A DNA stretch of 14,565 nt from Azolla caroliniana. Lineage: Eukaryota; Plantae; Polypodiophyta. How positions within the stretch are numbered: position 1 is the first letter of the stretch; every line of letters starts with the position of its first letter. A program made the translations under genes and the position numbers. The notes below the pieces were generated by a model. That model had not been told where the DNA came from. It worked only from the letters and a program-made list of their open reading frames with translations, and ran no database searches. Of the stretch, positions 1 through 14,565 are shown in pieces. Location of the stretch: assembly GCA_043228905.1 (NCBI GenBank), contig JBHGNT010000857.1, positions 1-14,565 of the forward strand, read 5' to 3'.

Positions 1-330
1 GTGTTTCATGTATCCCTTTTGGAACCTTATACTACAAGTTCAATTTCAGGCCGACTTACGACACCCCCACCACTTGTCGAGTTCTTGGACGGGCCTGAAT
101 TTGAAGTTGCTGCCGTTCTCGATTCTAAAATCGTGCGCAACAAGTTGTATTACTTAGTCGATTGGCTAGGTTATACCCCCAATGATCGAACTTGGGAACC
201 TGCCGCAAATCTTTCCAATGCTGCAGAACTCGTCAATGCATTTCATCGCCAATATCCTTGTAAACCAAGTCCTAATACAAACCCTACGACCCGTGAGACG
301 TGTCGTCGAAAAAGGGGGATAGTGTCATGA
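1..330 (+). CDS. pol: C-terminus of Ty3/Gypsy integrase with group I chromodomain (5'-partial)
   Basis: VFHVSLLEPY motif, then EFEVAAVLDSK...YYLVDWLGY...DRTWEPAANL...FHRQYP, a chromodomain with aromatic-cage residues. The ORF runs through the PPT and stops at TGA 328-330 inside the LTR. Confidence 0.92.
   Translation: MFHVSLLEPYTTSSISGRLTTPPPLVEFLDGPEFEVAAVLDSKIVRNKLYYLVDWLGYTPNDRTWEPAANLSNAAELVNAFHRQYPCKPSPNTNPTTRETCRRKRGIVS
308..322 (+). other. Polypurine tract of element A
   Basis: GAAAAAGGGGGATAG immediately before TGTCATGA. Confidence 0.88.
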
Positions 331-387
331 TAACACTCACATCATGCATCGAAAGGATCATGACACTCACATTATGACTCGAAAGGA
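325..387 (+). repeat. Imperfect tandem duplication (33 and 30 bp) at the LTR 5' end
   Basis: TCATGATAACACTCACATCATGCATCGAAAGGA (325-357) vs TCATGACACTCACATTATGACTCGAAAGGA (358-387). Confidence 0.85.
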
Positions 388-446
388 TTTGAACCCACGA
401 CCTTGTTGTACACATGTCAAATCCTTAACCATTGTATTAATATTCT
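374..446 (-). promoter_or_regulatory. tRNA-shaped Pol III type-2 promoter module (A box + B box); not a foldable tRNA
   Basis: Minus strand reads AGAATAT TA ATAC AATGGTTA AGGA T TTGAC ATGTGTA CAACA AGGTC GTGGG TTCAAAT CCTTT CGAGTCA T (73 nt). B box GGTTCAAATCC (395-385) and A-box-like TAATACAATGG (439-429) sit at tRNA spacing. The stems mostly do not pair. Confidence 0.65.
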
Positions 447-485
447 TATATGTATAGTCTCTAGAATATAAAATCTAATATCATA

Positions 486-628
486 GGAATATTCTATATT
501 ATTCTACATTCTAGAATGACCTAAAATATTCTAGAGTGTTCTATACCACTAGAACCTTCTAGAATACTCTAGAGATCTTCTAGATTACTCTACATTCTAT
601 GATAACCTAGAATATTCTAGAGTGTTCT
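486..628. promoter_or_regulatory. Heat-shock-element (alternating nGAAn) array in U3
   Basis: aGAAc-cTTCt-aGAAt at 551-565, aGAAt-aTTCt-aGAGt-gTTCt at 609-628, gGAAt-aTTCt at 486-495, aTTCt-aGAAt at 508-517. A 39-bp direct repeat spans 504-542 and 590-628. Confidence 0.75.
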
Positions 629-636
629 CTATTACT

Positions 637-644
637 TATAAATA
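637..644 (+). promoter_or_regulatory. TATA box of LTR A
   Basis: TATAAATA directly downstream of the HSE array. Confidence 0.75.
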
Positions 645-696
645 GGGATCTACCACCCATCCCAAACCTATCCTCCTTTGTAACCATCCTGAAACC

Positions 697-1863
697 ATGG
701 CTGCCATTAATTTAGAAGAATATCTCACCCTTGTTGCAGAAATGGAGAACCTTAAATCCAAGTTCACATCTCTTGAAGTAGAGAATCAACGTCTACTTGG
801 GGATCTACAAAAGGTTACTATAGAGAAGCAACAACAACAAGAGGAGTTCACGCGACGAGTGCAACAGTTAGAGTCGACAATCGTAGTGTTACAACAACAA
901 AGGGTTGAAGGTCAGGGACTTTTCAAGGAGCCCAAAATTAGCCTCCCAACTAAATTTGATGGGTCGAGGGCGCATTTCCGAGGTTTCTTGAATCAAGTAC
1001 GGTTGGTGATTCAAATGCATCCCGCGCGTTATCCAACAGATGCATCACGAGTCGGGCTAGTGGGCACCTTATTGACTGGCATAGCGTTGTTGTGGTTTGC
1101 TCCATTGCTAGAGACCAATTCTCCTCTATTGAATAATTTCGAGGAATTTATCAAGGAATTTAAAGCTTGTTTCGGTCCAGATACTGATGGGGCGAAAACA
1201 GTTATCAACAAGATTCGTACACTTCGTCAAGGTGATCAACCAGCTTCGACATATGCTGCCAATTTCCGTCTCATCGCAAGCGATATTCCTTGGGATGAAC
1301 AAGCCCTAATGGAGCAATTCCGTTCAGGCCTTCGTAGTGATGTCAAAGACTTACTTCTTACCTTCCCCGAGGATCCAAGGTCACTTACAGAAGCTATTAG
1401 TCGAGCAATACGGTGTGATAATCGCCTTTTTGAGCGTCGATGTGAGCGACAACAACAAATAACAAGATCAAGATTCACACCAACTTATGCATCAATAACG
1501 GCGCAATCATCCCCAAGGCAAATGTATAGCCATGCTCCATCTCCAAGGCAAACACGTAGTCTAGTCCCAATGGATAGTCCTGCACCTATGGAGATCGATA
1601 TGACTCAACGACGAGGACCGTTGTCAGATGAAGAGAAGCAACGTCGTCGAGCAAACCACCTATGCTTATATTGCGGATGTCCAGGACATATAGCCATTCA
1701 TTGCTCCCGTAGGCCGAGACGTCAGGTAAATCAAATTCACTATGACAATAAAAATGAGTCCAACATTTTAGAAGTAGTTAGTGAATCTAATATTATGAAT
1801 AATCCACCCTTGTCCAATAAATTTGAAGTCCTAAGCCAATTAGAAGAGGAGTCAAACGAATAA
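697..1863 (+). CDS. gag: Gag (retrotransposon capsid + CCHC nucleocapsid), intact 388 aa
   Basis: N-terminal coiled coil, [16 protein letters not shown]...YAANFR...FRSGL, PMEID, and the zinc knuckle [14 protein letters not shown]. Confidence 0.93.
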
Positions 1864-2990: not shown

Positions 2991-3445
2991 TGTTACGGGC
3001 ATGACCATTTAATATCCCGTGGTGAGAATTTACCGTAGTATTCTATACACGTGGATAAGTGTGAGGGTTAAATGAGAGTGTAAAGAAGGGGAGGATTACT
3101 TTTAATCCTCGGGATTGAGACAACCCATTAGGTCAAGTGTGAACTTGCCTGGGGGCCTTGGGTATCACTATAAATAAGAGGCCTAGCTACCCTCATTTGA
3201 TCATCTTTTGACTACATCGAGACTCTGCTCTTGTGGTGGGTCAACTCTTGTAGCGAGCGCGCCAACACCAGGAACGACTCGACGCCACGGCGGTGGTATG
3301 GGACGCCGATCGAGGCTCAAGTCCATCTCAATCCCTTCGCTCGGGGGTGGTCAGGTGGATCGGCACCCTTCTTTCTCTTTCTCCTTTCTATCTATCATTA
3401 GTTTATCCTTATCTTAAGCTTCCTTTAGCACCTAGATCTCTAATA
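2991..3445 (+). repeat. 5' LTR of element B (455 bp)
   Basis: TGTTA...TAATA (likely mutated TAACA), TATAAATA at 3169-3176, followed 2 nt later by the PBS. Matches 7989-8295. Confidence 0.92.
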
Positions 3446-3447
3446 TT

Positions 3448-3459
3448 TGGTATCAGAGC
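3448..3459 (+). other. Primer-binding site for tRNA-iMet
   Basis: TGGTATCAGAGC, the complement of the plant initiator Met tRNA 3' end. Confidence 0.95.
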
Positions 3460-3574
3460 TATGTACTAATGTTTCTTTGTTTGTCTTTTGTCTTTTGATT
3501 GATGGTGATCGATCGATGTGCGGTCGGCCTTGATTCAGACAACGATCAACAAAGAACTTCGAAAATAATCTTTA

Positions 3575-6500
3575 ATGGCTCAAATTAACGACCCGATGTC
3601 ATCCGCTCAAGCGGAAGGAACTCAAGGGAATCCTCCTGGACAAATGTCCACTGAGATGTATTTGGCACAAATAACCCAATACCTTAGTTTCACCGCTCAA
3701 CAGATGACCAAACTTCGGCAATCTCAGAGTGCTCTTGAGGCACGTGTCATTAGTCTACAACGTGAGACTAATAGACCTGATGAGCGACAAGGTGAACCAT
3801 CATTTATCGTTAAGCCATTTACGGGAGACAAAAAGGAAAGAACCGAAGAAGCAATCTGCACATGGCTGGGACGATGGGAGTCTCATTTTGAGCTCTATCC
3901 CACGCTAGATAGTATGAAGATTGCATATGTCAGCCGAGAACTCGGGGGTAAAGCCGCCGCCTGGTGGCGTGGGCTCCGCACTTTGGGGAAATTACCCGAT
4001 ACCTAGACAGATTTTGTCACGGTTTTTAAGGGCCAATTGCTACAACCTCCCTCTCGAACCGAGGTAGCACAAGCTTTAATGAACCTCTCTAGCAGGAAAT
4101 TTTCCTCGCTAGAAGACTATGTTCACCATGCTAGAACCCAAATCCAAAAATCGGGTCTAGAAGGGGACAATTGGTTGATAGCTTGTTTTGTCAATGGCAT
4201 CCCAATTCGGACTATCACTGGATAGTGCACGATAAGGATCCAAAATCCTTCGAAGAGGCCATTGAAATAGTTCTTCGCTATCAACGCACTTCGAAGAAGG
4301 ACCACAACAAACCCAACAAAGAGCCCAGGATTAAGCAGTCGCAATTCGTTGGGAAACGCAAGACACCCAACGAATTCATGGATCGCGATTGTAAGCGACA
4401 ATATCCTTTTTGCGTATTCTGCAAAAAGAAGGGTCATACAAAAGATCAATGTCGAAAGCTCCAACGGAAAGAGCACGACAACAAAGCTAAAGCTACAGAC
4501 CATAAAGGTCAGATTCCTAATGTCCTTCAGGTCTATACACATCATTTAAGTAATTGTCAATGTTCTTTCCCTCATTATGTATTGGGTCCCAATGATTTAC
4601 TACATGCAAACGGGTATATCAATGGATCTCCCGTACAATTTTTATTTGATTCGGGAAGCTCACACAATTTTGTGAATGATCGTTTGATTCAGATATGGGG
4701 AATCGAACCCACCGTACGTGATCACACCTACACGATGCACTTGGCTGATGGAAGAGTACAATACATCAATAGGGCGATTCATTCATTAGGAATTTCTATT
4801 GATACTTATATAGAGGAAGTAGACTTCCATGTAATGAATCTTTGTACCACCGATGTAATATTGGGTTATCCCTGGTTTTATAATAAAAACTCTTCTTTAT
4901 TTATTGATTGGGTTCGCCATTCCATTTCATTTGTACTGAACGACTATACTCATTTTATTCAATGTGTAAAAAAACAATCCCTCTCGATTGTTTCCTCGTG
5001 TCCATCAATATCTGAGTTGTCTTGTTCTACTCTATTTTATTGTGTACTTGATCCGGACATTCACGTTTACAATATCGATAATGTTCCGGTTCAATTAACA
5101 TATTTTGAACAACAACAACTTGATGAAATCTTAAATGATTTTCATGATGTTTTCCCAAGTGAACTACATGATGGGTTACCTCCCAAACGTAATATAGACC
5201 ATCGTATAGATATTGTACCTGGTGTTGCACCAATAAGTATACCTCTGTATCGCTTAAGTCGATCCGAAGAGGATGAGGTATCTAAGCAACTCAAGGACTA
5301 TTTACGAATGGGTTATATACGTTATAGTAAATCTCCATGGTGCGCCAGTTCTCTTGGTTAAAAAGAAAGAGGGCACATGGCGTATGTGTATTAATTACCG
5401 ACGCTTGAATAAAGTGACGATCAAGAATTCATACCCATTGCCCCGGGCTGACGATCTAATTGACCGTCTCTAGGGAGCTCAGTATTTTACGAAACTTGAT
5501 CTCTGTACTGGCTACCATCAAATATGAATAAGTGAGGATGATGTTCCTAAAACGGCATTTCGTACGCGTTATGGCCATTACGAGTTTTTGGTTATGCCTT
5601 TTGGTTTGACCAATGCTCCGGCTACTTTTCAACAAGAAATGAATGACATTTTCCGAGAACAACTTGGAAAATTTGTCGTTATTTTCTTGGATGATATTTT
5701 AGTTTATAGCCGTACATTACAAGAACATGCTAGACATGTCCGCTTTGTTTTACAAACATTGCGTGACAAACAGTTTTATGCGAAGATCTCAAAATGTGAG
5801 TTCTTCAAGAAATCAATTACTTATCTTGGACATCTCATAACCGAACGAGTTGAAATTGATCCTTCTCGCATTGAGAAAATCAAGCTTTGGCCCACTCTTC
5901 GGAATATTCGAGAAGTTCGATCATTCCTTGGTTTTGTTGGGTTTTTGCGAAAGTCTCTTCGTAATTACTCCCAATTGACGACGCCGTTTACTGATCTTTT
6001 AAAAGGTCAAACGCGTAAGTCTACAAAACCTATTGTGTGGAATGCTACACTAGACCTCGCCTTTAAGGAACTCAAGGACCTGGTTTGCAAGGCTCCTTCA
6101 CTTCTTTTACCTGATCCTTCAAAACCTTTTGAGGTTGAAACCGATGCAAGCGATTATGCTATAGGTGTTGTCTTGTATCAAGATGGTAAACCAATAGCAT
6201 TCGAGAGTAAGAAACTTGATTCTGCTTAATGTCAGTATACCGTTCAAGAAAAGGAATTATTTGCAGTTATACATGCGCTCAAAACATGGCGCCATTATCT
6301 TTAAGGAAATCGCTTTGTGGTAACTACGGACCACGAGTCCTTGAAATATTTTTGTCACCAACAAGACCTGAAAGGTCATAAGGCACGATGGGTAGATCTC
6401 ATCCAGGACTTTGATTTTGCCATACGATATCGTAAAGGTTCCATGAATATTGTCGTTGATGCACTAAGTCGCATCCGTGAAGTTAACATGCTCAGCTTCA

Positions 6501-8002
6501 CGGAAATAACATCAGATCTTTATGATCACCTTCGAGGAAAGTATCCTGATAACAGTTATTTTGCAAAATACTAGGCAAGAGTTGAGTCTGGAACAAACAC
6601 CACCACATCCTCGAAGGAATACTTCCACATTGTTAACGGTTTGCTCTACCGTAATGGGAAGGTTTGTGTTCCAGATTTACCCGAGGTCAAAAAGAGGATT
6701 CTTTTTGAATGCCATGATGCACCCTCAATAGGGCACCCTGGAATACATCGTACACTCATTCTCATCTCCACTCAATTTTATTGGCCTAAGATGCGCCCTG
6801 ACATACATAGTTATGTGACTAAATGTCACCAATGTCAAGTTAAAAAAGCCGAGCGACTTAAAGCTGCAGGACTTTTACATCCCTTGGACATTCCCAATAA
6901 TAAGTGGGAAAGTATATCCGTGGATTTTATTGTTAGCCTTCCTCGCACCCAAAAAGGCCATGATGCCATCTGGGTTGTGGTTGATAGACTAACTAAAATG
7001 GCCAGATTTATTGCTACTAAAACCACGGTAACAGCTCATAAATTGGCTTACCAATTCGTTGACGAATTATTTCGTTTTTATGGGTTACCGATGGATATCG
7101 TGAGTGATCGAGATCCAAAATTTACTAGTGACTTCTGGACGCAAGTCTTTAAGAAGTTAGAAACTACGTTGAGCATGAGCTCCACGGATCATCCTCAATC
7201 CGATGGACAAATAGAACGAGTAAATCAAATTATTGAGGACATGCTTCGAGCATACGTTGGTGCAAAACCAACAAAATGGGAACGTTATCTCCCAATTTTG
7301 GAGTTTGCTTATAACAGCTCCAAGCATACGTCGACGGGATATAGTCCTTTTATGTTGATGTATGGTTTTCAGCCACGAGCCCCGATTGATGTTAATATAC
7401 ATCATGATGAGTTGCAAAGTACGCAAAACTTTCTTCGGGATATGCAAGATATGTTGCATATTGCACGAGATAATATAAAAACAACTCAAGATAGAGCGCG
7501 TTTTTATGCCGACCATCATAGGCAACCTCATGTATTCAACCCTGGACAGAAGGTATTTTTACGTGTACCTCACAATTCTAAGACATTGTCTACGGGTAAG
7601 TGCACTAAGTTAGCCCCACGGTTTTGTGGACCTTTCACAATCCTCAAACGCATTGGGTCATCAGCCTATTGCCTCGCTCTTCCCGATGGTGTTGGAATTC
7701 ATCGAGTCTTTCATGTGAGTCGTCTAAAAGAACTTCTAGGTTCTAGCGACAATACAGTTACAACTGAAACTCTGCTTACTTCTGAAGAATTATCTTCTAA
7801 ACCACATGTACCAGAAAGAATTCTCGATATTAAAACAAAAAAATTACATACTAAAGAAATCCGAGAATTTAAAATAAAAAGGATGGATAAAACAATAAAA
7901 GATGCCACATGGGAATGCGAAAATACTCTCAGAACTAATTTCCCTAACTTTTCATTGCAAGAGTGCAATGTTTTAAAGAGGGGGAGTATGTTACGGGCAT
8001 GA
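3575..8002 (+). pseudogene. gag-pol: gag-pol polyprotein of element B, disrupted
   Basis: Gag with CVFCKKKGHTKDQC, protease FLFDSGSSHNF, RT ([20 protein letters not shown]), RNase H ([11 protein letters not shown]), integrase HHCC, D-D-E core, GPF motif, terminal chromodomain-like PERILD...DATWE. Stops at 4004, 5471, 5525, 6227, 6302 and 6572; frameshifts near 4203 and 5340. Confidence 0.93.
7975..7988 (+). other. Polypurine tract of element B
   Basis: AAAGAGGGGGAGTA immediately before TGTTACGGGC. Confidence 0.9.
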
Positions 8003-8295
8003 CCATTTAATATCCCATGGTGAGAATTTACCGTAGTATTCTATACACGTGGATAAGTGTGAGGGTTAAACAAGAGTGTAAAGAAGGGGAGGATTACTTT
8101 TAATCCTCGGGATTGAGACAACCCATTAGGTCAAGTGTGAACTTGCCTGGGGGCCTTGGGTATCGCTATAAATAAGAGGCCTAACTACCCTCATTTGATC
8201 ATCTTTTGATTACATCGAGACTCTGCTCTTGTGGTGGGTCAACTCTTGTAGCGAGCGTGCCAACACCAGGTACAACTCGACGCCACGGCGGTGGT
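7989..8295 (+). repeat. 3' LTR of element B, truncated (307 of 455 bp)
   Basis: Ungapped match to 2991-3297 with 9 substitutions by manual count. Similarity stops after CGGCGGTGGT. Confidence 0.93.
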
Positions 8296-9581: not shown

Positions 9582-9779
9582 TGTCGTGGAGAAAACCGTC
9601 CCTAGGCGGAAACCGGGTATAACGTGCGTAAACCGGCCCTTACACGTGGGCACAAGTTTTGTTGTATAGTACGTAGATAGGTACAAGTCGGATGAGGCGA
9701 AATCCTAGGTAGCACGCATTCATTAGGGAGAAAATCGAGGCGTATCCCTGTCCGAAAGGACAAGGAATAAAAATGATGT

Positions 9780-10094
9780 TGTTGAGATATCAAGCTCAAC
9801 TAGTTTAATCTAGTTAGTCAACACATGTAACTTAGTAGTTACCTAGATCGAATCTAGTTAATGTGTTGACCTTAAGCCTTTAAATAGGACCTTGTACTTA
9901 AGTGGGATATTCTAGATCCTCCACTCCTTAGTACATTTAATGTAGGACTTACACATAAGTACCTATGTTCTACCCACACATGTGCACCTTTGCACATGGG
10001 TTGTATATATACCTCATTGTGGGTATTTTTGTAGTTGATGACACTTTTCAATATAGTCAATCATCCCCCATTTATCTTTGTGTTCAAGTGTAAC

Positions 10095-10152
<58 letters not shown>

Positions 10153-10255
10153 TCTCACACACTCTCTCTCTCTCTCTCTCTCTCTCTTCAGCTGCTTAAC
10201 GTAACCATATAATTAGTCTCTAATTAACCATAGTTAATTACCTAATTACTTAACA
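9780..10255 (+). mobile_element. Solo LTR D1 (476 bp, Copia-like termini)
   Basis: TGTTGAG...TTAACA, flanked by GATGT/GATCT (5-bp TSD, 1 mismatch), no PBS or PPT, homologous to 12368-12812. Orientation inferred from TATA followed by (CT)n. Confidence 0.88.
10098..10186. repeat. Interrupted (CT)n microsatellite within solo LTR D1
   Basis: Direct reading; much shorter in the D2 copy. Confidence 0.92.
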
Positions 10256-10857: not shown

Positions 10858-12288
10858 ATGAACACCCAAATGGGTAGCTCGCTCCCTAGTGAAAAGCTAG
10901 ACTAGAGCAATTATTCATCTTGGGAGTACAAGATGACCCAATACCTCGTCGGCCAAGGGTATTGGAGCTACATTCACGACGCACTCGAAAACAAGCCCGA
11001 CATCAAAAACACCAACTACCCAGCGTGGGAGCAAGGAGCGAGTCGGGTAATGTATTGCTTGGCAACATGTGTCCACGACCACATTCGAGACGCCAAGACG
11101 CCTAAAGAGGCGTGGGCGAATTTAAAGAAAAATTTCGCCGCCAACACGACCGCCCAAAAGCTTCAACTCCGACAAGAGTTGAACAACATTCGGCAAAAAG
11201 ACATGTCTATGTCAGACTACACCGCCAAGATCAAGAGCATTTGCGACTCACTTGGCTCCATCAACATAAACGTCAACGAAGACGAGATAGTTCAAGTATG
11301 CTTGGGCGGCCTCACACAACGATTCGATCCATTACGGATGGCAATCTTGGCGAGAGAAAACCCTCCCTCATTCATCGACCTCCAATCAATGCTATTGGTT
11401 GAAGAGAACCACGTCCGAACCAAAAGCAAGACGTCGGAAGGACAAATGTTCTTCTCGAATTCGAATGGTGGCCGAGGAGGAAGTCGCGGCGGTAGAAGAG
11501 GTCAATTCGGCCCATCACACGAAGGGAACCCAAACCTTCACGGAAGCCATCAAGGAACTTTCGGAAGAAGGGGGAGCTTCCACGCCAAACAAGGTCGGCA
11601 AACGACGCCCACAACTTGCAATTATTGCGGCAAAGTCGGCCACCATGAGGCGGTGTGTTGGAAAAAGAGAAGTGAGTCGGCTTCAACAAGTCGACAACTC
11701 ATAAACTACGCATCGAACTCCTACTATGACAATCGTAGCGGAATGTTCACGAATCACACATTGAATTCCGACTACGGCGACCGTGGCAGAATGTTCGTAA
11801 TGAGGCATAGAGCGAACTCTATGACGGCCTCCAACTTCGCAAGCACCTCCAATTCGGAAGACGTGCAGTTCGTCGATTCCGGCGCCTCACATCACATGAC
11901 ATCCCACAAGGAGTGGTTCAATGACTTGCGTACACCAGATCGACCCAGCTACATAGAGACGGGAGACAACACCACGCATCCCATTCGACACATCGGCAAT
12001 GTCCCATTCGGGAAAGAAGGCGAGCAAACTTGCATCAAGAATGTCTTGCATGTGCCCACAATAACGAAGAATTTGGTCTCGGTCGGCCAAATCATGGAGC
12101 AAGGCATGCAAGTCTGCTTCAACAACGAAGGTTGTTTCATCGAGAAAGATGGTCAACTCATAGCCAAGGGACGAAGAGACGGTCGAATGTTCATCCTCGA
12201 TTCGAACGAGGTGAAATCGGCAATGTACGCTAAAGGTCTCAAAACCGAGACAAGCATCGAGTTGTGGCACAAGAGAATCGGCCACATG
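10858..12288 (+). pseudogene. gag-pol: Ty1/Copia gag-protease-pre-integrase (segment E)
   Basis: ATG at 10858 in frame with ORF 10933, with TAG at 10903. KLD.SNYSSWEYKM, UBN2-type gag, CNYCGKVGHHEAVC, protease FVDSGASHHMT, NVLHVPTITKNLVSV, LWHKRIGH. Confidence 0.9.
11704..11799 (+). repeat. In-frame 48-bp tandem duplication in the gag-protease linker
   Basis: NYASNSYYDNRSGMFT / NHTLNSDYGDRGRMFV, with a matching 48-nt period in the DNA. Confidence 0.7.
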
Positions 12289-14565
12289 GCACATTAGTCT
12301 CTCGACGGTGCCTTCTGATTCGTCAGCTTTATTGATGACTCGACTCAAAAGGTGTGGGCATATCTGATGTTGAGAGATCAAGCTCAACTTAGTTTAGTTA
12401 GTTAGTCAACAATATAACTTCGTAGTTACCTAAATATAATCTATTTAGAAGTGTTGACTATAATGCCTTAAATAGGACCTTGTACTTATGTGGGATATTC
12501 TAGATCCTCCACTCCTAGGTACATTTAATATAGGACTTACACCTTAGTACCTATATTCTACTCACACATGTGCACCTTTGCACATGAGATAGTATATATA
12601 CCTCATTGTGGGTATTTTTGTATTTGATGATGATAAAGCTAATTTAATATAGTTACTCATCCCCCATCTTGTGTTGTTCATAAGTGTATCTCTCTCTCCC
12701 TCTTCCTCTCACACACATACACACACATATCACTTAATCTTCCGCTTATTAACTTAATCACATAATTAGGTACTAATTAACCCATACTTAATTACTTCCC
12801 TAATTCTTAACATCCGATAAAGACCAAAGATCTAGTGGTTCTCAATTTTCTCTGATTGGCTCGCTATGGTCAAGAATTAGTACGGCCGAAAATTGAAATG
12901 CTTTCGAACAGATAATGGAGGAGAGTTCAAATCTGAAGAATTCGTCAGATTCTGCCGACAACGCGGCATACGACATGAATATACGGCACCCCACAATCCG
13001 GAGCAGAACGGAATTGCCGAGCGGATGAATTGGACAATTCAAGAAAGGATAGTTTCCATGCTCCAACACTTCGGACTATCAGATGGCTTTTGGGAAGAGG
13101 CACTACTTACGCAGTACACATAATCAATATGTCGCCTAGTAGGCCTCTAAGACTTTGGATACCTCAGGAACTATGGAACGGCATCAAGCTGAATTACGAC
13201 AAGCTAAGGATTTTCGGGTGCGAGGCATACGCCCTCATACCGAAAGACGATCGCTGCAAACTTGCACCAAGGTCCCGGAAATGCATTTTCCTCGATTATG
13301 GACCAAATGGTGAAATCGGCTATTGACTCTAGGACCTCGAGCACAGACAGATCGTCTGAAGTTCAAACGTAGTGTTCAATGAGTCAGCCATGCATCAATT
13401 GGCCGAAAAGCTAATTGAAGTCCGAAGGGTAATTTTTTCTAATGTGCCAACCCTTCACGAAGGCCCAACCCGCAACAAAAGATCGGCTTCACGAGTAGCC
13501 GAAACTCTAGCACTGACTCGGCAGCATCCGACTCGGCACAACCGAATGTTTCGGCTTTTGACCATCCGACTTCGATACCCGATGCAACTAGTCTAGTCAT
13601 ACCTCGAAGATCAGTGAGACTGTCGCGGCCCCTAGAGAGATACTCTCCTGGAATCTTCTTTACGGACGCCGGAGAACTGACGTCATACGAAGAAGCATCG
13701 GCATCTGCCGATTCGGCCACCTAGCATCTGGCAATGGAGTCCGAAATGAACTCCATTCGAGCAAACCAAACTTGGGACTTGGTTGAACTACCGAAAAATC
13801 GATGTGCTCTTCCATGCAAATGGGTCTATAGAATTAAAGAGACGTTTGATTCGTCCACCCCAAAATTCAAGGCCAGGTTAGTTGCGAAAGGGTTTCAACA
13901 GGAATGACAACCCTCCCCTTTATGCTCGGCGTCGTGGTAGCCGAGAATTTGGAGTTGATTTAGCTAGATGTCAAAACGGCATTCCTCCATGGTGATCTAG
14001 AGGAGGAAATTTATATGGAGTAGCCGAAAGGCTTCGTCGCACCCGGCCAAGAACATCTAGTCTCCCGACTCAGGAAGAGTCTTTATAGCTTGAAACAAGC
14101 ACCGCGACAATGGTGTTAGAAGTTTGATGACTTCATTCAGTCGGTTGGCTTCTCGAAGAGCGATGAGGACCATTGTCTCTTCACGAAAACAACTTGAGAT
14201 GGGTCACCCATCTTCCTCATCATCTACGTGGACGACATGTTAATCTCCGGTCGGTAAGCCGGAGAGCTTGTCGAACTCTTTCGGCAACTACAGTTTAAGT
14301 TTGCCATGAAGGACCTCGGTTCGGCAAGACACATTCTCGGCATGAAGATCAATCGAAATCGAAATCGAAGACAATTGTGTTTGTCCCAATGCGACTATAT
14401 TACCCGTGTCCTCGAACGCTTCAACATGCAATCGGCTAAACCTACTTCAAACCCGCTCCCCATTAGCCTTTGGCTGTCTCAGCGAGACTGCCCAACATCT
14501 GCTTCGGAGGGGGACATTATGAAGTCGATACCGTATGTACAGGCAATCAGCTCCTTGATGTATGC
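12289..14565 (+). pseudogene. pol: Ty1/Copia integrase core and reverse transcriptase (segment F, Tnt1/Tork-like), interrupted by D2, 3'-partial
   Basis: FVSFIDDSTQKVWAYP / IKTKD across D2, RTDNGGEF, PEQNGIAERMN, LRIFGCEAY, KLAPRSRKCIF; RT TWDLVELP...CKWVY...KARLVAKGF, LDVKTAFLHGDL, YVDD at 14225-14236, MKDLG. Many stops, frameshifts and a deletion near 13905. Confidence 0.92.
12368..12812 (+). mobile_element. Solo LTR D2 (445 bp) inserted in the Copia integrase
   Basis: TGTTGAG...TTAACA with TSD TCTGA/TCCGA. Removing it restores VWAYPIKTKD. Confidence 0.92.

Follow-up and report, generated by a model that had tools for sequence, protein, structure and literature searches.

The window, that is, the whole stretch of 14,565 nucleotides analysed here, is a nest of plant-type LTR retrotransposons. 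It begins with the end of an integrase open reading frame (ORF) carrying a chromodomain, followed by a polypurine tract (PPT) and the U3 of a Tcn1-type LTR (Table 1). The aromatic-cage residues F34, W55 and Y58 are all present in the window chromodomain, as seen in the chromodomain alignment. The integrase ORF extends across the PPT and terminates at LTR bases 6–8; many relatives are alike in this respect, with GIVS or GMVS ends. The 30-nt tandem duplication at the beginning of the LTR is present in two relatives (L002 and L078), and two others (L025 and L070) contain a single unit. The array preceding the TATA box is of the heat-shock-element (HSE) type.

Table 1. Features of the first part of the window
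Feature	Position	Strand	Evidence
End of integrase ORF with chromodomain	1..330	+	Pfam Chromo, E 3e-14; ORF; alignment of relatives
PPT	308..322	+	Sequence; PPT at the same place in relatives
T5 run, proposed Pol III terminator, hinging on copy-private A311	309..313	-	Variants at 311; terminator survey
U3 of Tcn1-type LTR, start TGTCATG	323..668	+	LTR start; loose ends at 668–670; LTR ends of intact relatives
30-nt tandem duplication, subfamily-specific (327–356/357–386)	327..386	+	Supplies register positions 61–73
tRNA-gene-derived module, register 1–73, facing out of the LTR	374..446	-	Sequence; relatives
B box GGTTCAAATCC, register positions 52–62	385..395	-	Exact B-box match; between-family identity 0.79 over 52–61
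AGGT block, register positions 44–47	400..403	-	A44 95%, G45 94%, G46 91%, T47 100%
A box (T8...A14 A15 T16 G18 G19 T20...A21)	426..439	-	T8 95%, A14 94%, T16 96%, G18 98%, G19 96%
Predicted TFIIIB footprint, an AT-rich tract preceding the register	447..490	-	Composition
HSE-type GAAnnTTC/TTCnnGAA array, five pairs in the window copy	487..617	+	Motif count; repeats
TATA box of the element's Pol II promoter	637..644	+	Sequence; same distance upstream of the R start in relatives
Junction of family-1 LTR and family-2-type gag leader	668..669	+	Identities to relatives; loose ends
gag ORF of the downstream element	697..1863	+	ORF; domain search

Contigs from sequencing runs show loose ends at 668–670, where the family goes on into R and U5 while the window switches to a gag leader. 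The chromodomain region of the window is 95% identical to L001 and L002, the gag is 89% identical to L041, and the protease-RT part is 94% identical to L042. Judging by its sequence, the window copy is a chimera that lacks R, U5 and the self-priming PBS, and it is predicted to be defective. According to the ORF list, the gag and pol frames overlap (646–1863 and 1827–2867). A second gypsy element (2991–8288), having LTR copies of at least 300 nt that are 97% identical and a PBS near 3449, presumably of the tRNA-Met type, sits within the RT of the Tcn1-type element downstream. Dispersed direct repeats, 74–97% alike, are located at 9777–10229 and 12365–12782, on either side of a copia-type gag-pol fragment (10906–12297), and more copia pol remnants are found up to the end of the window.

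A preliminary description of this DNA had noticed that the minus strand of 446–374 fits a 73-nt tRNA register without gaps, which was borne out: T8 falls at position 439, A14 at 433, G18 at 430, G19 at 429, A21 at 426, T33 at 414 and AGGTC (44–48) at 403–399. Of the cloverleaf, whose acceptor, D and anticodon stems were said there not to pair, only 9 of 21 pairs are formed (acceptor 3/7, D 1/4, anticodon 1/5, T 4/5; counted by hand from the sequence). No tRNA was called in the window by ARAGORN, and the Rfam search of the window gave no tRNA match at E<=10 and returned just a tmRNA match of 7.2 bits at 384–427. The window module folds no better than its shuffles (z -0.43). The window contains two B-box matches against 0.20 expected, a number reached in 5 of 200 shuffles and therefore mildly unusual. 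A B-box match in the window alone could be due to chance; the case against chance rests on the relatives.

The module is covered by contigs of all four runs (three coded organisms), its depth being among the highest in 230–760, and the window stretch is contained in leaf metagenomes. Among the variants listed, those reaching at least 5% within the module are at 377, 399, 408 and 445, and box B is free of them.

Occurrence and conservation among related elements

Relatives were retrieved from metagenome contigs by chromodomain protein alignment alone, and the best 80 of 160 chromodomain relatives, with 54–93% identity, were retained. The LTR set consisted of 75 loci, all from a single numbered assembly series, and the window; L001 and L069, which were too short, and L004, L037 and L055, which were without an LTR start, were dropped. 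The first 130 LTR bases formed 19 clusters with a between-cluster identity of 0.56, compared with 0.48 for shuffles. A seed pattern based on general tRNA knowledge (A14 R15 .. G18 G19, 32–35 nt, GTTCRA) was sought in the first 160 nt and was found on the minus strand of 53 of the 76 LTRs and on the plus strand of none (0/76), the mean for shuffles being 0.13; with C61 added, it was found in 49/76. Other stretches contained it in 16 cases of 2470, two of which were real tRNA genes.

When modules were placed using leave-one-family-out profiles that permitted a spacing of 30–45, 67 of the 76 LTRs scored above 10 bits. The G18–G53 spacing in these placed modules was 36 in 43, 35 in 21 and different in 3, and box B lay between 10 and 62 nt from the LTR end. 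An alignment with two real tRNA genes matches the module column by column. The Rfam search, applied to 20 of the 80 loci, found a tRNA match at none of the LTR modules, and ARAGORN with a lowered threshold was abandoned as noise because it called ‘tRNAs’ all over the loci. Real tRNA genes (Asn and Thr, and an Asp call) occur beside 5′-truncated element fragments at L021:553–626 (+) and 832–905 (-) and at L028:128–201 (+).

In the chromodomain tree (84 rows and 115 columns, with many weak forks; L025, L076 and L080 left out), the module appears in every main ingroup branch, and the eight rows without it are scattered tips. Coverage by 4/4 runs and the presence in all main branches rule out a private SINE insertion in one copy. 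The preliminary description had named privacy to a single copy as an outcome that would count against its idea; instead, the module turned out to be common to at least 12 LTR families. A search of viral contigs with the chromodomain revealed no relatives. A reverse transcriptase search of IMG/VR gave 11 distant chromoviruses, and the module was absent from all 11, the best combined score being 5 bits against 18–48 bits for placed modules. It was also absent from SM-Tcn1 of Selaginella, judged by eye on the supplementary sequence of PMC2864245. Its absence from SM-Tcn1 and the 11 distant chromoviruses indicates that the module is not essential to the chromovirus lifestyle.

Conservation was assessed on 53 distinct modules from 12 families. 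It had been suggested as a check that the boxes should be conserved more than their flanks, and this is what was found: between-family identity was 0.84 at positions 44–48, 0.79 in the B box (52–61) and 0.65 in the A box, against 0.38 in the spacer, 0.47 at positions 49–51 and 0.31–0.38 in the flanks, with the reservation that box-anchored placement inflates the identities somewhat (T8, T16, 44–47, G52 and T60 lie outside the seed pattern). In an unanchored MAFFT alignment of 18 LTRs, the conserved blocks were the LTR terminus and the two boxes only. As a benchmark, the chromodomain region of 43 loci showed an identity of 0.37 at four-fold silent sites and 0.80 at codon positions 1–2. Box B and positions 44–48 are conserved like codon positions 1–2, and the spacer, flanks and silent sites are near saturation.

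Across the 12 families, G53, T54, T55, C56, R57, A58 and C61 of the B box were conserved at 99, 99, 100, 89, 100, 99 and 73%, respectively. C61, though a consensus base, is lost in families 5, 8 and 10, and G10 of the A box is likewise an unconserved consensus base (A in the window; G10 in only 34% across families). At the CpG-prone 56–57 step, G57 and A57 alternate (29:24), and C56 is changed to T in only 3 of 53 modules. The tRNA-like bases named in the preliminary description are all present in the window copy, but two of them, T33 (34%) and A21 (57%), are unconserved across families. The idea of a captured tRNA-type promoter is well supported and applies more widely than proposed, to at least 12 diverged LTR families where it is under purifying selection. 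T35 (window position 412) is found in 81% across families, within the otherwise saturated spacer.

Fold, terminators and neighbouring promoter elements

Only 6–14 of the 21 cloverleaf pairs are formed in 32 LTR rows, compared with 21/21 in two real tRNAs. An apparent excess of cloverleaf pairs (52.7% vs 47.6%) was rejected, since it was inflated by the two real tRNA rows. Without these rows, the D, anticodon and T stems pair no more than they do in shuffles and no stem covaries, and a small excess is seen overall (0.498 vs 0.472, 22/1000) and in the acceptor stem (19/1000). RNAalifold predicted 0 pairs on the modules. An alternative hairpin, 23–30:55–62 in families 0 and 1, showed no excess (0.58 vs a cross-family null of 0.56) and was discarded. 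A long hairpin is present in family 0 only, where 8 of 11 modules fold at z below -2; outside this family, 2 of 42 modules do so. The family 0 hairpins of L019:1191–1263, L024, L050, L063 and L074 have z of -3.7 to -5.8 and may represent a lineage-specific RNA or DNA hairpin.

For the 53 modules, the first T4 downstream falls within the LTR (18 cases), the PPT (9) or the integrase ORF (23), and 3 modules have none, giving predicted RNAs from about 60 to more than 1000 nt. A T4 inside the module was found in 6/53, compared with 7.7 in shuffles, and none of the oligo-T terminators is common to the 53 modules. The lack of stem covariation, of RNAalifold pairs and of a common terminator suggests that selection acts on the DNA sequence and not on an RNA product.

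The complement of the PPT had been proposed as the first possible terminator, yielding an antisense RNA of roughly 135 nt. In the window copy, the PPT T5 (313–309) is indeed the first run of four or more T downstream, at about 133 nt, but this does not hold as a family feature. Position 311, which does not appear among the variants listed for the RNA runs and lies 21 nt from the end of the part compared with them, is G in about 97% of the summed contig depth, in 4/4 runs; the close relatives L001 and L002 carry GAAGAAGGGGG in the PPT, so that the typical PPT reads TTCTT on the minus strand. A 135-nt RNA terminated by the PPT is thus unsupported, the A at 311 being copy-private and the length also hinging on the 30-nt duplication. 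The RNA runs X19 and X17 each contain one unstranded contig leading from host flank into an LTR, and X16 appears to be DNA.

Upstream of the register, no conserved TATA-like motif was found (0.16 vs 0.15–0.17 in controls), and CAA is modestly enriched (0.28 vs 0.09). HSE arrays are located beside the module in families 0, 1, 2, 4, 5 and 16. Families 3, 6, 8, 10 and 11 have 0–1 HSE pairs and possess what we take to be RY/ABRE-like motifs, and family 14 has neither. The connection with a heat-shock promoter made in the preliminary description therefore stands for some families, including that of the window, but not for families 3, 6, 8, 10, 11 and 14. As the module is kept beside differing enhancer sets, it seems to be tied to the LTR edge and not to heat shock.

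The LTRs of relatives end in TGACA, after which comes sequence that can pair with their own R start, and this pairing of R start and PBS is accompanied by compensatory changes in L041, L042, L047 and L062. On these grounds, the studied elements are assigned to the Tf1/Tcn1 type of self-priming; they have no tRNA PBS and require no tRNA as primer. Among Tcn1 elements, 83% are reported as predicted to be self-priming, and overlapping gag and pol are reported as the dominant layout. The carriers of the module encode gag and pol (a 1109-aa open frame in L001). A second B-box-like motif, found downstream of the TATA box on the plus strand, was dismissed as a promoter because it proved to be the self-primer, varying together with the PBS. 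Read on the plus strand, this self-primer, about 30 nt after the TATA box (L020, L035, L041, L062), is T-loop/B-box-like in every family examined, with two different registers among them.

Possible function of the module

It is tentatively suggested, with a probability of about 0.48, that the module is a tRNA-gene-derived A/B-box pair kept under purifying selection by autonomous self-priming Tcn1-type chromoviruses, at the outermost part of U3 and pointing away from their Pol II promoter, as a likely TFIIIC site and probable barrier protecting the LTR promoter against silencing. That it is a functional TFIIIC site seems likely, and, given such a site, a role as a barrier or in open chromatin is rather to be expected than not. 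The wider idea, in which autonomous, heterochromatin-targeting chromoviruses of one clade turned the promoter of a tRNA gene into a chromatin barrier that travels with them and insulates their own Pol II promoter, is put forward with caution. The conserved bases largely match reported TFIIIC contacts. A change of C56 is reported to lower TFIIIC binding 370-fold, and TFIIIC accepts an A–B spacing of 30–67 bp (PMC11811891), so the fixed spacing of 35–36 is tighter than binding alone needs. Positions 44–47 are described as a contact of the tauB winged helix that influences binding as well as transcription, an effect of G45 is described too, and TFIIIB is said to require box A in order to be loaded (PMC11724288).

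In the proposed mechanism, TFIIIC would bind box B together with positions 44–47, and box A would position tauA in such a way that TFIIIB lands on the AT-rich tract at about 447–490. This tract lies between the module and the stress-enhancer array with the TATA box, so that, in the 5′ LTR, the complex would stand between flanking heterochromatin and the Pol II promoter, in the manner of tRNA-gene barriers. The selected benefit would be an open, insulated Pol II promoter inside heterochromatin, and Pol III transcripts, if made, would vary in length and be by-products. The ability of tRNA genes to act as chromatin barriers has been described chiefly in yeasts and mammals. Box B alone might suffice for a barrier, as in extra-TFIIIC sites, and the retention of box A fits transcription equally well. 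Chromodomain integrases, including that of RLG1, are thought to target heterochromatin (PMC7466625).

Under another explanation, which is unlikely, Pol III actively transcribes from the module and the resulting antisense RNA is what selection keeps; from the 3′ LTR, this RNA would read into the PPT and the integrase ORF and would limit copy number or seed small RNAs. Box A, needed for TFIIIB loading and initiation, is kept; a T4 lies within the LTR or PPT in 27/53 modules; and the long hairpin of family 0 (z below -2 in 8/11) and the Pol III small-RNA cassettes reported in the U3 of foamy virus (PMC3993851) would suit such a product. The scattered first T4, with predicted RNAs of about 60 to more than 1000 nt, the near-shuffle frequency of T4 inside the module (6/53 vs 7.7) and the paucity of stable folds outside family 0 (2/42 below z -2) argue against it. 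It is also improbable that the U3 of the genomic RNA pairs with a host tRNA through its D and T arms, like the 3′ half of the bipartite PBS of Ty3, and aids packaging or strand transfer. Although the antisense orientation and the place in U3 just after the PPT match those described for Ty3 (PMC5371799), and a fixed tRNA-like spacing of the boxes suits pairing, there is no tRNA PBS, and the R start pairs with post-LTR sequence, with compensatory changes. Positions 49–51, which would be in the middle of the duplex, vary (0.47), and the isolated T8 is conserved across variable positions 10–13. Wobble-preserving G>A changes are rare (G18 1, G19 0 and G53 0 of 53), and pair-breaking changes of C61 occur in 8/53.

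An involvement of the TFIIIC/TFIIIB site in integration, as a cDNA tether or through old LTRs serving as landing pads for Pol III-targeting elements, is quite improbable. It could draw on the tRNA genes in 2/80 loci, but these genes adjoin 5′-truncated pol and not an LTR end in both loci, and the 13 listed LTR breakpoints are spread from -21 to +227 relative to register position +1 with no cluster. There is very little chance that what the LTR carries is the neutral remnant of a SINE or tRNA that inserted long ago, or a fortuitous look-alike. Helenus is proposed to have arisen when a SINE inserted into an LTR (PMC10886601), and such an origin is plausible for this module too; however, a relic would decay evenly, and here the boxes are conserved nearly at codon level while the spacer has diverged like silent sites, which largely rules out a neutral relic. 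A chance look-alike is excluded by the occurrence on the minus strand in 53/76 LTRs against 0/76 on the plus strand and 0.13 in shuffles.

If the barrier reading is true, full and solo LTRs, in their thousands, would scatter outward-facing TFIIIC/TFIIIB sites over the genome of a non-seed plant. The contig depth over the window LTR is very high, so these sites may be numerous and could influence how TFIIIC is distributed and how Pol III reads through into the DNA of the host. The module offers a test of tRNA-gene barrier activity in plants and of its use by transposons that target silent chromatin. In addition, the natural variation among the 12 families amounts to a mutational scan of a type 2 promoter in plants, in which positions 44–47 stand out.

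Comparison with known systems

Pol III promoters in LTRs have been described for non-autonomous TRIMs, where they make the element RNA. An outward-facing module cannot do so, and an outward promoter held about as tightly as protein-coding positions calls for another function. The closest likeness is found in Helenus/TRIMp3, which has tRNA-derived LTR sequence with conserved boxes A and B and no functional cloverleaf (PMC10886601). The putative Pol III promoter of Helenus was proposed only (Kojima 2024), with one plant case, in Selaginella (PMC10886601). Helenus elements are non-coding TRIMs of 311–1263 bp with tRNA PBSs, whereas the carriers studied here encode gag-pol and self-prime; moreover, the Helenus promoter is proposed to make the element RNA, whereas the studied boxes point outward and a TATA promoter is present (PMC10886601). 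The accessible text of the same paper mentions that ‘not a few’ Repbase LTRs contain tRNA-like parts, its analysis being confined to TRIMs (PMC10886601). Cassandra, which is plant-wide, and Ajax also have an LTR-borne internal Pol III promoter under purifying selection, but it is 5S-derived (type 1), belongs to non-autonomous elements and drives the retrotransposing RNA (PMC10886601).

The bipartite PBS of Ty3 from Saccharomyces cerevisiae includes a U3 sequence antisense to the T and D arms of tRNA, and it differs in working with a 5′ tRNA PBS, which the studied elements do not have (PMC5371799). Simian foamy virus has A/B-box Pol III units in the U3 of an autonomous LTR element; its miRNA cassettes possess defined hairpins and terminators, neither of which is conserved in the studied modules (PMC3993851). 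No description of such a module in Tcn1 or moss LTRs was found in the full-text literature, judged by titles and the openings of abstracts, with subscription papers largely outside reach. A sequence look-up revealed nothing resembling the window LTR, and a homologue search with pol gave no close relative bearing a name.

As for the Tcn1 group, SM-Tcn1 of Selaginella shares with the studied elements the aromatic-cage chromodomain and overlapping gag and pol (PMC2864245, PMC6317226). The accessible part of the literature reports plant Tcn1 elements from mosses and club-mosses only (PMC6317226). Taken together with the occurrence of the stretch in leaf metagenomes, this points to a host among the non-seed plants, probably a moss. 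The assignment to Tcn1 draws on likenesses in the LTR end, PBS and R start that were judged by eye: the LTR of SM-Tcn1 ends in TGACA and is followed by GTTTGA, and its R start ends in TCAACACCAGTCT (PMC2864245). The U3 of SM-Tcn1, also judged by eye, differs in having tandem repeats and no antisense A/B module (PMC2864245), nor do the accessible descriptions of Tcn1 elements mention one (PMC2864245, PMC6317226). Evidence of self-priming is reported as absent for SM-Tcn1 in the accessible text of its description (PMC2864245). Yet inspection by eye suggests that the R start and post-LTR bases of SM-Tcn1 (at about 395–415 and 492–510) are complementary and arranged like those of the studied families.
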